In this document: positions 29,264 to 33,700 of the stretch, in pieces
How positions within the stretch are numbered: the first letter of the stretch is position 1
Layout of the letters: each line of letters opens with the position of its first letter
Assembly: GCF_000027125.1 (NCBI RefSeq)
Contig: NC_017626.1
Length of the DNA: 64,000 nt
From: Escherichia coli 042
GTDB lineage: Bacteria; Pseudomonadota; Gammaproteobacteria; Enterobacterales; Enterobacteriaceae
Reading direction: 5' to 3' (one strand)
Made by a program: the position numbers and the translations under genes
Notes under the pieces: model-generated
Databases searched by the model: none
Told to the model about the DNA's origin: nothing
The model's input: only the letters and a program-made list of their open reading frames with translations

Positions 29264-30256
29264 ATGCGACATAGCGTACTTTTTGCGACAGCGTTTGCCA
29301 CGCTTATCTCTACACAAACTTTTGCTGCCGATCTGCCGGGCAAAGGCATTACTGTTAATCCAGTTCAGAGCACCATCACTGAAGAAACCTTCCAGACGCT
29401 GCTGGTCAGTCGTGCACTGGAGAAATTAGGTTATACCGTCAATAAACCCAGCGAAGTGGATTACAACGTTGGCTACACCTCGCTTGCTTCCGGCGATGCA
29501 ACCTTCACCGCCGTGAACTGGACGCCGCTGCATGACAACATGTACGAAGCTGCCGGTGGCGATAAGAAATTTTATCGTGAAGGAGTATTTGTTAACGGCG
29601 CGGCACAGGGTTACCTGATCGATAAGAAAACTGCCGACCAGTACAAAATCACCAACATCGCGCAACTGAAAGATCCGAAGATCGCCAAACTGTTCGATAC
29701 CAACGGCGACGGTAAAGCGGATTTGACTGGCTGTAACCCTGGCTGGGGCTGCGAAGGTGCGATCAACCACCAGCTTGCCGCGTATGGACTGACCAATACC
29801 GTGACGCATAATCAGGGGAACTACGCAGCGATGATGGCTGACACCATCAGTCGTTACAAAGAGGGTAAGCCGGTGTTTTACTACACCTGGACGCCGTACT
29901 GGGTGAGTAACGAACTGAAACCGGGGAAAGATGTGGTCTGGTTGCAGGTGCCGTTCTCCGCACTGCCGGGCGATAAAAATGCCGATACCAAACTGCCGAA
30001 TGGCGCGAATTACGGCTTCCCGGTCAGTACCATGCATATCGTTGCCAACAAAGCCTGGGCCGAGAAAAACCCGGCAGCAGCGAAACTGTTTGCCATTATG
30101 CAGTTACCAGTGGCAGATATTAACGCCCAGAACGCCATTATGCATGACGGCAAAGCCTCAGAAGGCGATATTCAGGGCCACGTTGATGGCTGGATCAAAG
30201 CCCACCAGCAGCAGTTCGATGGCTGGGTGAATGAGGCGCTGGCAGCGCAGAAGTAA
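29264..30256 (+). CDS. proX: Glycine betaine/proline periplasmic binding protein
   Basis: [28 protein letters not shown]... signal peptide; 330 aa. ORF-track start 29222 is an extension. Confidence 0.93.
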
Positions 30257-30708
30257 ATATTGATAACCGCGCAGATAATGCTCATGTGAGTAAAACAATT
30301 GCAGCGATGGTTTTAATCCGGCTGAAAATCGATGAGACGTTTTCTGAAGGCCGGGGCGACGCGCAGGGATGCGCGGCGAGGGCGCGTCTTACAGGGATGT
30401 TACCTCGCGCCCGTACCCGATAGCCGTAAGAAATAAGTCGAATGTACCGCGTAGCGGCGATTTTGTGCCAAAAGCCTGGGTCGCCAGGGCGGTGGCGACT
30501 GAGCCACCCTGGCACGTTCACCAGCAAAATAGTGACAAAGTAGCTATAATCTGGAAGTGAACGTAACATTTGCCTTAGTGGCATATTTCACCTTCAAATA
30601 CCCTCTCCCCATTACCCGCACATTTTAACAATCTATCTTTCGCCCCATATTCATAAACATCCGCTATTATTGATTCCCAGCTTAATCATCACCTGATGAA
30701 CAAAAATA

Positions 30709-31893
30709 ATGACTAAAACAAACCATGAGCTTAGCCCGGCGCTGATCGTGCTGATGTCTATCGCCACCGGTCTGGCGGTAGCCAGTAACTATTACGCCCA
30801 GCCATTACTCGACACCATCGCGCGTAACTTTTCCCTTTCCGCCAGTTCGGCGGGCTTTATTGTTACCGCCGCGCAGTTGGGCTATGCCGCAGGTCTGCTG
30901 TTTCTTGTTCCCCTCGGTGATATGTTTGAACGCCGCCGCCTGATTGTCTCGATGACCTTACTGGCAGCGGGCGGTATGTTAATCACTGCCAGCAGTCAGT
31001 CACTGGCGATGATGATCCTCGGTACGGCATTGACCGGTTTATTCTCGGTCGTGGCACAAATTCTGGTTCCGCTGGCAGCGACGCTGGCTTCACCAGACAA
31101 ACGCGGCAAAGTGGTCGGCACCATTATGAGCGGGCTGCTGTTGGGGATCTTGCTGGCACGAACCGTTGCCGGGTTGCTGGCAAACCTCGGCGGCTGGCGC
31201 ACCGTCTTTTGGGTTGCCTCGGTGTTAATGGCACTGATGGCGCTGGCATTATGGCGTGGTCTGCCACAAATGAAATCAGAAACCCACCTCAACTACCCAC
31301 AGTTGCTTGGTTCCGTTTTCAGCATGTTTATCAGCGATAAAATTCTGCGCACCCGCGCGTTGCTGGGCTGCCTGACCTTTGCCAACTTCAGCATTCTCTG
31401 GACCTCAATGGCCTTTTTGCTTGCCGCTCCACCTTTTAACTACAGCGATGGTGTAATTGGTCTGTTTGGACTTGCGGGAGCTGCCGGAGCGTTGGGTGCT
31501 CGTCCGGCGGGCGGTTTTGCCGATAAGGGTAAATCGCACCACACCACTACTTTCGGTCTGCTGCTGCTATTACTTTCATGGCTGGCGATCTGGTTTGGCC
31601 ACACTTCCGTACTGGCGTTGATTATCGGCATCCTGGTGCTGGATCTCACCGTGCAGGGCGTGCATATCACTAACCAGACGGTAATTTATCGAATACACCC
31701 TGATGCGCGTAATCGCCTGACCGCAGGTTACATGACCAGCTACTTTATTGGCGGTGCCGCCGGTTCGCTAATTTCAGCCTCAGCCTGGCAACATGGCGGT
31801 TGGGCTGGCGTTTGTCTGGCTGGCGCGACGATTGCCCTGGTTAACTTACTGGTCTGGTGGCGAGGTTTTCATCGTCAGGAAGCTGCAAATTAA
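30709..31893 (+). CDS. ygaY: MFS-superfamily transporter, intact 394 aa
   Basis: 12-TM-like hydrophobic profile; position after proX matches the ygaX/ygaY locus, which I recall as pseudogene fragments in K-12. Confidence 0.7.
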   Translation: MTKTNHELSPALIVLMSIATGLAVASNYYAQPLLDTIARNFSLSASSAGFIVTAAQLGYAAGLLFLVPLGDMFERRRLIVSMTLLAAGGMLITASSQSLAMMILGTALTGLFSVVAQILVPLAATLASPDKRGKVVGTIMSGLLLGILLARTVAGLLANLGGWRTVFWVASVLMALMALALWRGLPQMKSETHLNYPQLLGSVFSMFISDKILRTRALLGCLTFANFSILWTSMAFLLAAPPFNYSDGVIGLFGLAGAAGALGARPAGGFADKGKSHHTTTFGLLLLLLSWLAIWFGHTSVLALIIGILVLDLTVQGVHITNQTVIYRIHPDARNRLTAGYMTSYFIGGAAGSLISASAWQHGGWAGVCLAGATIALVNLLVWWRGFHRQEAAN

Positions 31894-32016
31894 GCAATCA
31901 GCAACCGTTTTCGTGGCTTTACACTTATAAGGGTGTTAAGAAGCCCATCAGTCTGATAAGGTTAAGATATTCATTCAGTCTATTTATAATATTAACAATC
32001 GTTAAGCGTACACTCT

Positions 32017-32754
32017 ATGGAAAGCCCTACTCCACAGCCTGCTCCTGGTTCGGCGACCTTCATGGAAGGATGCAAAGACAGTTTACCGATTGTTATTAGT
32101 TATATTCCGGTGGCCTTTGCGTTCGGTCTGAATGCGACCCGTCTGGGATTCTCTCCTCTCGAAAGCGTTTTTTTCTCCTGCATCATTTATGCAGGCGCGA
32201 GCCAGTTCGTCATTACCGCGATGCTGGCAGCCGGGAGTAGTTTGTGGGTTGCTGCACTGACCGTCATGGCAATGGATGTTCGCCATGTTTTGTATGGCCC
32301 GTCACTGCGTAGCCGTATTATTCAGCGTCTGCAAAAATCGAAAACCGCCCTGTGGGCATTTGGCCTGACGGATGAGGTTTTTGCCGCCGCAACCGCAAAA
32401 CTGGTACGCAATAATCGCCGCTGGAGCGAGAACTGGATGATCGGCATTGCCTTCAGTTCATGGTCATCGTGGGTATTTGGTACGGTAATAGGGGCATTCT
32501 CCGGCAGCGGCTTGCTGCAAGGTTATCCCGCCGTTGAAGCAGCATTAGGTTTTATGCTTCCGGCACTCTTTATGAGTTTCCTGCTCGCCTCTTTCCAGCG
32601 CAAACAATCTCTTTGCGTTACCGCAGCGTTAGTTGGTGCCCTTGCAGGCGTAACGCTATTTTCTATTCCCGTCGCCATTCTGGCAGGCATTGTCTGTGGC
32701 TGCCTCACTGCGTTAATCCAGGCATTCTGGCAAGGAGCGCCCGATGAGCTATGA
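32017..32754 (+). CDS. ygaZ: AzlC-family branched-chain amino acid (L-valine) exporter subunit
   Basis: 245-aa membrane protein; overlaps ygaH. Confidence 0.9.
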
Positions 32755-33079
32755 GGTTCTGCTGCTTGGGTTACTGGTTGGCGCGGCGAATTATTGCTTC
32801 CGCTATTTGCCGCTGCGCCTGCGTGTGGGTAATGCCCGCCCAACCAAACGTGGCGCGATAGGCATATTGCTCGACACCATTGGCATCGCCTCGATATGCG
32901 CTCTGCTGGTTGTCTCTACCGCACCAGAAGTGATGCACGATACACGCCGTTTCGTGCCCACGCTGGTCGGCTTCGCGGTACTGGGTGCCAGTTTCTATAA
33001 AACACGCAGCATTATCATCCCAACACTGCTTAGCGCGCTGGCCTACGGGCTCGCCTGGAAAGTGATGGCGATTATATAA
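32744..33079 (+). CDS. ygaH: AzlD-family L-valine exporter small subunit
   Basis: 111 aa; 4-bp-class overlap with ygaZ. Confidence 0.9.
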
Positions 33080-33169: not shown

Positions 33170-33700
33170 ATGGATAGTTCGTTTACGCCCATTGAACAAA
33201 TGCTAAAATTTCGCGCCAGCCGCCACGAAGATTTTCCTTATCAGGAGATCCTTCTGACTCGTCTTTGCATGCACATGCAAAGCAAGCTGCTGGAGAACCG
33301 CAATAAAATGCTGAAGGCTCAGGGGATTAACGAGACGTTGTTTATGGCGTTGATTACGCTGGAGTCTCAGGAAAACCACAGTATTCAGCCTTCTGAATTG
33401 AGTTGTGCTCTTGGATCATCCCGTACCAACGCGACGCGTATTGCAGATGAACTGGAAAAACGGGGTTGGATCGAACGTCGTGAAAGCGATAACGACCGTC
33501 GTTGCCTGCATCTGCAATTAACGGAAAAAGGTCACGAGTTTTTGCGCGAGGTTTTACCGCCGCAGCATAACTGCCTGCATCAACTCTGGTCCGCGCTCAG
33601 CACAACAGAAAAAGATCAGCTCGAGCAAATCACCCGCAAATTGCTCTCCCGTCTCGACCAGATGGAACAAGACGGTGTGGTTCTCGAAGCGATGAGCTAA
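33170..33700 (+). CDS. mprA: MarR-family repressor MprA (EmrR)
   Basis: 176 aa; first gene of mprA-emrA-emrB. Confidence 0.93.

Follow-up and report, generated by a model that had tools for sequence, protein, structure and literature searches.

ygaY of Escherichia coli 042, an intact YnfM-family transporter gene that K-12 has lost through slippage at a 7-bp repeat

INTRODUCTION

Among the described relatives of the transporter considered here, YnfM (TCDB 2.A.1.36.1) is a proton-coupled, carbonyl cyanide m-chlorophenylhydrazone (CCCP)-sensitive glutarate exporter in E. coli BL21 and Corynebacterium glutamicum, and in BL21 deletion of ynfM alone abolished glutarate export (PMC12622518). The same TCDB family, the YnfM (acriflavin-sensitivity) family, holds E. 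coli YgaY (P76628; 2.A.1.36.3), whose entry reads "Unknown" (Hassan et al. 2017; PMC5417439), in agreement with an earlier reading of the locus from its DNA sequence alone (the sequence-only reading), which had called the substrate uncharacterised. SotB (YdeA), a DHA1 sugar/isopropyl-β-D-thiogalactopyranoside (IPTG) efflux protein with solved structures (PDB 6KKI, 6KKJ, 6KKK, and 6KKL), is the best solved-structure match to YgaY by profile and by fold, and the DHA1 multidrug:H+ antiporters MdfA and NorA share its fold. Here, we describe the ygaY gene carried by a 64,000-nucleotide stretch of E. coli 042 (contig NC_017626.1; the whole stretch is called the window below).

A search of the literature under ygaY and the older names ygaX, b2680, b2681, and Z3982 found no published function. 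The gene has served as a neutral integration site, as a pseudogene control, and as an H-NS bridging site for proU. That ygaY is intact elsewhere and a pseudogene in K-12 is already recorded in RefSeq and in the literature, and as the ordinary state of the species an intact copy means little beyond bookkeeping, with modest practical consequences. What we add is the exact mechanism of the lesion, which leaves K-12 one repeat unit and one single-nucleotide polymorphism (SNP) away from a living allele; the confinement of that lesion to the K-12 lineage; and the strong constraint on the intact gene, with its distinctive conserved set of Arg, Asp, Gln, and Asn residues.

RESULTS AND DISCUSSION

Intact ygaY and the K-12 lesion

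In the window, ygaY is a single ATG-initiated open reading frame (ORF) of 394 codons whose ends fall exactly at 30709 and 31893, plus strand (ORF listing with translation), as the sequence-only reading had it. The protein is identical to RefSeq WP_000169332.1 and to that of E. coli AF40. The gene and the site at which K-12 differs are as follows.

30709..31893, plus strand: ygaY, intact, encoding a transporter of the major facilitator superfamily (MFS) with 12 transmembrane (TM) helices, TCDB 2.A.1.36.3 (YnfM family); from the ORF, Pfam, AlphaFold2 (AF2), and Foldseek
30961..30975, plus strand: site of the K-12 lesion, codons 85 to 89, where the window reads GGCAGCGGGCGGTAT, an imperfect repeat; from sequence comparison

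The ORF is a genuine gene and a chance ORF is ruled out, because it matches Pfam MFS_1 (PF07690) with an E value of 2.6e-41 (142.2 bits against a gathering cutoff of 33.4), has 7,883 homologs at E ≤ 1e-10, and shows ratios of nonsynonymous to synonymous substitution (dN/dS, or omega) of 0.017 to 0.041. The Pfam score also bears out the MFS-like profile noted earlier.

In K-12 MG1655, the locus (NC_000913.3, 2808316..2809493; 1,178 bp) is annotated as pseudogene ygaY, b2681, between proX and ygaZ, and in a DH1 derivative of K-12 it is annotated "MFS transporter, frameshifted." Older naming divides it into ygaX (b2680) and ygaY (b2681; UniProt P76628), and the K-12 locus still appears as "(ygaXY)" in Shimada 2014 (PMC3946193). 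Aligned globally, the window gene and K-12 ygaY differed by 40 substitutions and one 7-bp indel over 1,185 bp (96.6% nucleotide identity); the substitutions were almost all synonymous, with T4P as the sole amino acid difference. The K-12 gap falls at gene nucleotides 255 to 261 (window 30963 to 30969), so that frame 0 ends in a stop at codon 89 and the remaining protein continues unchanged in the +2 frame. The two loci thus share their position between proX and ygaZ and their amino acids downstream of the lesion, but K-12 lacks one repeat unit, whereas the window copy is intact. The disruption that the sequence-only reading gave for K-12 ygaX/ygaY is therefore real, K-12 does not have the same intact frame, and the frame shift explains the former two-ORF annotation.

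The repeat at this site in the window is imperfect (GGCAGCG GGCGGTA), and phylogroup-A-type alleles carry a perfect 7-bp tandem repeat at codons 85 to 88 (GCGGCAT or GGCGGCA, each twice): HS and BL21 read CT-GGCGGCA-GGCGGCA-TG, and EBJ001 reads CTG-GCGGCAT-GCGGCAT-G. Across 1,185 bp, K-12 ygaY differs from an EBJ001-type allele only in lacking one GCGGCAT unit and in a single SNP at nucleotide 516, and adding the 7 bp back gives the EBJ001 allele except for that SNP. For this reason, the lesion is a slipped-strand event of very recent date, in which replication slippage dropped one copy of the perfect 7-bp tandem repeat within codons 85 to 88. We regard the identity of the gene and this mechanism as nearly certain. 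The imperfect repeat in the window is presumably less prone to slippage.

To see where the lesion occurs, complete genomes were searched with a probe of 48 nt that has the K-12 junction at its middle. Full-length matches were found in 354 of 5,426 genomes, and all eight of the carriers sampled at even steps were K-12 derivatives (ER1709, NCM3722, an MG1655 evolution clone, a conjugation recipient, TG1, J53, a "laboratory developed" strain, and MG1655). Other partial matches to the probe were accounted for by intact repeat alleles. By this survey, the lesion occurs only in the K-12 lineage.

Distribution and selection

The 1.6-kb ygaY region was present at 80% coverage or more in 5,412 of the 5,426 genomes, always on the chromosome and in a single copy. 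The gene is intact in AF40, HS, BL21, EBJ001, and Z1323CEC0014, and every non-K-12 copy inspected was intact except that of PCP06021. Full-length 394-amino-acid YgaY proteins are on record for Shigella flexneri, Shigella sonnei, Escherichia fergusonii, Escherichia albertii, and Escherichia marmotae, and a Citrobacter protein is on record at 93% identity. By the Nei-Gojobori method, E. coli alleles gave dN/dS values of 0.017 to 0.029 with one another and 0.041 in comparison with Citrobacter, for which the neighbouring ygaZ gave 0.040. Intact ygaY is the norm of the species and K-12 the exception; these ratios indicate strong purifying selection in nature, and we conclude that intact ygaY is an ancestral gene of Escherichia kept by such selection.

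In E. coli PCP06021 (seawater, Galapagos), a natural deletion (positions 4093 to 4555 of the locus extracted from that genome, L007) fuses the first 159 bp of ygaY, to codon 53, to ygaH; most of ygaY and all of ygaZ are gone, and this is the sole disrupted copy inspected besides K-12. The window allele is itself divergent for a within-species comparison, with a synonymous divergence (dS) of 0.13 to 0.15 from those of HS and EBJ001, and just 207 of 5,418 genomes reached at least 99% identity to the window over the ygaY region; the few close matches and the high dS together place the window in a minority lineage. The best match to this region was AF40, an isolate from a UK rectal swab (99.8%).

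Protein family, fold, and motifs

Pfam MFS_4 also scored above its cutoff on YgaY (32 against 26.3 bits). The subfamily comprises 1,142 representative 50%-identity clusters at E ≤ 1e-30, and none of the homologs looked up had an informative name; all were "MFS transporter" or "predicted MFS family arabinose efflux permease." The sequence-only reading had proposed TM prediction as a check, and the AF2 model (mean pLDDT, 94.1; pTM, 0.92; 60-sequence alignment) shows 12 long helices with a central amphipathic linker helix at residues 196 to 209. Lys and Arg residues number 17 in the predicted cytoplasmic loops and 2 in the periplasmic loops, which places both termini in the cytoplasm. The predicted arrangement of 12 TM helices in two six-helix halves with cytoplasmic termini is that of an MFS protein.

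YgaY belongs to the YnfM family by full-length homology and by its TCDB listing. It aligns with K-12 YnfM over 376 amino acids at an E value of 2e-20 (BLASTP), the two share a 12-TM architecture, and the TM5 Arg of YgaY (R151) aligns with an Arg of YnfM. However, identity is only 26%, and ynfM has a divergent LysR-type regulator gene, ynfL, whereas ygaY has no adjacent regulator. In Foldseek searches of the PDB, the model matched SotB with TM-scores of 0.84 to 0.90 (root mean square deviation, 2.4 to 2.7 Å), MdfA with 0.83 to 0.86, and NorA with about 0.80; in a search of PDB sequences, the family profile matched SotB (4.6e-15) and EmrD (2.2e-14), both essentially over their full length. Despite this likeness, YgaY is only 16 to 17% identical to SotB, scores 63 bits against a cutoff of 401 for the NCBIfam SotB equivalog, and meets Leu or Pro in SotB at R151 and Gly at D312. 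Similarly, MdfA and NorA share its fold (TM-score, 0.80 to 0.86), but identity is 14 to 18%, and YgaY lacks motif C and the acidic residues of MdfA TM1. Full-length NCBIfam similarities to SotB, Cmx/CmrA, Bcr/CflA, MxcK, and EmrD all fell far below the curated cutoffs: the best scores were 63 (SotB), 52 (Cmx), 50 (Bcr/CflA), 37 (EmrD), 19 (AraJ), and 18 (NepI) bits against cutoffs of 200 to 584.

The TM2-TM3 loop of YgaY carries a variant of motif A, G70-DMF-E74-R75-R76-R77-L (GDMFERRRL), in which Arg replaces the second Gly; a strict regular expression fails on it and a relaxed one matches, and we count the motif as present. An echo of it in the C-terminal domain reads G268-GFA-D272-K-G-K (GGFADKGK), and both motifs are conserved in the family. 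The protein contains no GP dipeptide anywhere, and D35 lies in a short helix after TM1, toward the TM1-2 loop. Membership of canonical DHA1 (TCDB 2.A.1.2) was considered and rejected on the motif tests and the NCBIfam cutoffs. Across homologs at 35 to 57% identity, near-invariant polar residues within helices were Y28, Y29, and Q31 (TM1), Q56 and Y59 (TM2), Q117 (TM4), and R151 (TM5) in the N-terminal half and D312, Q316, N322, and Q323 (TM10) and R336 and Y341 (TM11) in the C-terminal half. Conservation was 98% for R151, 90% for D312, 90% for N322 and Q323, and 100% for R336.

Proposed function and alternatives

Taken as a whole, our preferred explanation is that ygaY is an ancestral MFS gene, lost from K-12 by slippage, that encodes a proton-coupled exporter of the YnfM family; we put its probability at about 55%. 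A proton-coupled exporter is favoured because of the fold, the placement of YgaY in one family with YnfM, and the full-length relatives, since all full-length sequence and fold matches of YgaY are exporters. In addition, the Bacillus homolog is divergent from a TetR regulator gene, an arrangement typical of efflux. Considered separately, and by analogy with these relatives, export is the likelier direction of transport.

Under this explanation, YgaY would be a secondary transporter working by the rocker-switch alternating access of MFS proteins. Asp312 in TM10, with Gln316, Asn322, and Gln323, would form the protonation and substrate site, and Arg151 in TM5 may either interact with the substrate or link the two domains. 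The protonation sites of NorA include an Asp in TM10 (D307), the helix that also holds YgaY D312, and the two residues may be equivalent; titles of PDB entries among the NorA fold matches name E222 and D307 mutants. Because the conserved residues thought to face the cavity are polar (Tyr, Gln, Asn, Arg, and Asp), the substrate might be a small hydrophilic or anionic metabolite rather than a hydrophobic drug, although our confidence in this class is low. The gene probably has weak transcription of its own, supplemented after osmotic shock by some proU read-through, and it would not be tied functionally to proU or ygaZH.

Several observations weigh against this explanation. The TM10 residues Asp312, Asn322, and Gln323 are Ser, Ala, and Ser in YnfM, and none of the three is shared with SotB. 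Antiporter motif C (G-x3-G-P-x2-G-G) is absent from TM5, which reads GTIMSGLLLGILLARTVAGLL; the membrane span of TM1 (residues 10 to 30) has no Asp or Glu; the motif-B Arg is absent from TM4 (residues 99 to 126); and YgaY reached no NCBIfam equivalog cutoff. The placement of conserved residues in the cavity was taken from general MFS helix geometry rather than from model coordinates. A promoter and terminator scan of positions 30150 to 32150 found no ygaY promoter. No transport assay or phenotype is on record for any member of the YgaY subfamily, for which all source names are generic. The possibility that YgaY is a redundant glutarate exporter was rejected, since ygaY is intact in BL21 and yet deletion of ynfM abolished export there (PMC12622518); by this comparison, YgaY would not be a redundant glutarate exporter, at least as expressed in BL21.

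It is unlikely that YgaY is an importer, whether a nutrient proton symporter or a metal importer of the kind that the Salmonella YnfM ortholog, as CuiT, has been claimed to be. The absence of the canonical antiporter motif C would fit import, as would the strongest NCBIfam match (TIGR00895, the N-domain of aromatic acid/H+ symporters; E = 1e-21, residues 20 to 187), the glucose symporter GlcP among the PDB sequence matches, and the report of STM1486, a YnfM homolog, as a Cu importer (PMC13101709). However, the symporter matches span only the N-terminal half, the one that MFS proteins conserve generically, whereas every full-length match by sequence or fold is an exporter, and neither Escherichia nor Citrobacter has catabolic genes or a substrate-responsive regulator beside ygaY. 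A classical DHA1 efflux pump for hydrophobic or cationic drugs would suit a place beside emrR-emrAB, the presence of MdfA and NorA besides SotB among the top fold matches, the NCBIfam similarities to Bcr/CflA, Cmx, and EmrD, and a TCDB family name that points to acriflavin sensitivity. Yet YgaY has none of three features of drug antiporters (motif C, an acidic residue in TM1, and an Arg in TM4), the conserved helix residues are polar (Tyr, Gln, and Asn) where MdfA typically has a hydrophobic lining, scores lie far under every drug-pump equivalog cutoff, and ygaZH stands between ygaY and emrR with no apparent operon link to emrR-emrAB, which together make such a pump quite unlikely.

It is improbable that YgaY works with its neighbours, in osmoprotectant handling with ProU or in branched-chain amino acid export with YgaZH. 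The order nrdEF-proVWX-ygaY-ygaZH-emrR is kept between Escherichia and Citrobacter, hyperosmotic shock moderately raises the ygaY transcript, and H-NS bridges the proU downstream regulatory element (DRE) and ygaY DNA in K-12; but ygaZH has its own constitutive promoter, the rise after shock was put down to read-through by its authors and was measured on a pseudogene, homologs at 45 to 57% identity are never beside ProU-like or AzlCD-like genes (five contexts), and proU and ygaZH are functional in K-12 without YgaY. The suggestion implied in the sequence-only reading, that the position between proX and ygaZH informs the substrate, is therefore not supported. Most improbable of all is that ygaY is a dispensable relic being lost across E. 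coli, with K-12 merely the first case sequenced. Growth of K-12 is normal without YgaY, and the natural isolate PCP06021 has a deletion from codon 53 into ygaH, as a relic would allow; against this, omega is 0.02 to 0.04, as low as that of ygaZ, the locus is kept in 5,412 of 5,426 genomes with the lesion only in the K-12 lineage, and the inspected non-K-12 copies other than PCP06021 are all intact, with full-length Shigella proteins on record.

Going one step beyond the preferred explanation of a YnfM-family exporter, YgaY and the approximately 1,100 representative clusters at E ≤ 1e-30 might constitute an uncharacterised branch of the family that exports a specific polar or anionic metabolite, with a catalytic signature of its own (a TM5 Arg, Asp-x3-Gln-x5-Asn-Gln in TM10, and no motif C). 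We offer this as a tentative proposal that is more doubtful than the exporter assignment itself. If it is true, transporter screens based on K-12 (Keio, ASKA, and orphan-transporter metabolomics) are blind to YgaY, since K-12 lacks the protein, and a real export function of wild E. coli may have escaped discovery. In any case, results from K-12 cannot speak to YgaY function, and a 7-bp repair of K-12 would yield a clean isogenic pair for finding the substrate.

Expression and gene context

Upstream of ygaY are proV, proW, and proX, and downstream are ygaZH and emrR-emrAB; the placement after proX and before ygaZH matches that given by the sequence-only reading. The neighbouring features of the window are listed below.

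29264..30256, plus strand: proX, last gene of the proVWX (proU) operon, upstream neighbour; from ORF translation and RefSeq annotation of orthologous loci
30620..30708, plus strand: conserved region of approximately 90 bp proximal to ygaY, the only part of the proX-ygaY spacer common to the window, K-12, HS, Z1323, and AF40
31962..31990, plus strand: ygaZH promoter TTAAGA-17-TATAAT in the ygaY-ygaZ spacer; from a scan, 10 of 12 matches
32017..33079, plus strand: ygaZ-ygaH, AzlC/AzlD-type L-valine exporter, downstream neighbours; from ORFs and, as for the next four features, RefSeq annotation of orthologous loci
32017-32754: ygaZ (ORF)
32744-33079: ygaH (ORF)
33170-33700: emrR/mprA (ORF)
From 33827: emrA, of emrAB (ORF)

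The approximately 90-bp region presumably holds the ygaY promoter and translation initiation signals; a scan of 30620 to 30708 detected neither a consensus sigma-70 promoter nor a strong Shine-Dalgarno sequence. No proX terminator and no ygaY terminator were found in the scan of 30150 to 32150. Upstream of ygaZ, the hexamers TTAAGA and TATAAT are exactly those that Shimada 2014 (PMC3946193) gives for a constitutive RpoD promoter of ygaZH.

Gene order from nrdEF through proVWX, ygaY, ygaZH, and emrR to emrAB is kept in Citrobacter (one ortholog checked). The genes around homologs at 45 to 57% identity in Corticimicrobacter, Gilliamella, Bacillus altitudinis, Salinisphaera, and a metagenome are unrelated to those around ygaY, with no recurrent gene partner among these five. 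Flavin-dependent oxidoreductase genes (Oxidored_FMN or FMN_bind_2) occurred at or near the homolog in three of the five contexts, which are too few to interpret, and the TetR regulator gene flanking the B. altitudinis homolog is a single case and too weak for inference. The adjacency of ygaY to proU and ygaZH carries no functional signal. In published work on K-12, H-NS bridges ygaY DNA to the downstream regulatory element of proU, and the low-level ygaY transcript increases moderately upon salt shock, an increase that the authors ascribe to read-through. Both are properties of DNA and transcript, measured on a pseudogene.

The ygaY start codon is overlapped by a six-codon mini-ORF (ATG AAC AAA AAT AAT GAC TAA) at 30696 to 30716, which is kept in E. 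coli alleles but not in Citrobacter. No clear Shine-Dalgarno sequence precedes the start of the mini-ORF or that of ygaY. We rejected the mini-ORF as meaningful, the Citrobacter upstream sequence being unrelated. E. coli Z1323CEC0014 has an 11-bp tandem duplication (TTGATTTCCAG; positions approximately 1570 to 1603 of its extracted locus, L008) within the conserved 90-bp region just before the ygaY start.

A putative structured element in the proX-ygaY spacer

The spacer between proX and ygaY differs among strains. It measures 191 bp with one repetitive extragenic palindromic (REP)-like unit in K-12 (L002 5126-5316), 291 bp with two REP-like units in HS and BL21 (L004 979-1269), and 452 bp with an unrelated segment of approximately 360 bp in the window (30257 to 30708) and AF40. 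Downstream of proX, the window showed no terminator-like hairpin with a T-run behind it, and for that reason read-through from proU into ygaY may differ between spacer types. In Z1323CEC0014, RefSeq calls a 59-amino-acid "hypothetical protein" on the opposite strand over REP sequence.

In place of the REP units, the window carries a putative structured element, TwoAYGGAY-like, of approximately 210 nt at 30317 to 30525 (core, 30327 to 30455), with the following predicted hairpins.

30357-30378: hairpin 1 of the spacer element
30380-30412: hairpin 2 of the spacer element
30483-30513: 3' hairpin of the spacer element

The approximately 360-bp segment is full-length in 547 genomes and annotated in none. 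Copies of the element core (window 30317 to 30525) at approximately 82% identity occur in the convergent asmA-yegH spacer of approximately 1,400 other genomes, and the exact 26-nt core occurs once in the window and, among 100,044 species-representative genomes, only in Escherichia species and one metagenome-assembled genome. Against the full Rfam TwoAYGGAY model (RF01731), the window element scored 28.2 bits and the asmA-yegH paralog 31.5 bits, below the gathering score of 43. The alignment covers two adjacent GC hairpins with loops CAGGGAUG; in the window, both loops are AGGGAU, and in the paralogs, they are AUGGAU in hairpin 1 and AGGGAU in hairpin 2. The stem of hairpin 1 is wholly different between window and paralog yet still pairs, with three compensatory pairs, and compensatory changes were seen at 13 predicted pairs among nine element copies, a small and closely related set. 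The GGA loops are on the same strand as proX and ygaY. For TwoAYGGAY RNAs, whose function is not known, CsrA binding has been predicted (PMC2864571, PMC4333381), and from these comparisons, it is plausible that the spacer element is a small structured RNA element.

The asmA-yegH copies of sequence type 131 (ST131) strain 4224 (L017 2501-2710) and isolate 602 (L018 2501-2707) stand in opposite orientations relative to asmA and yegH, each pointing the same way as its upstream gene, in a position like that of a 3' untranslated region. The opposite orientations suggest independent insertion or inversion, as in the behaviour of a mobile element. Beside one of these copies (L017 2760-2832), Rfam also matched naRNA4/CssrE, a nucleoid-associated RNA derived from REP sequence, at 33 bits, below the gathering score of 59.5.

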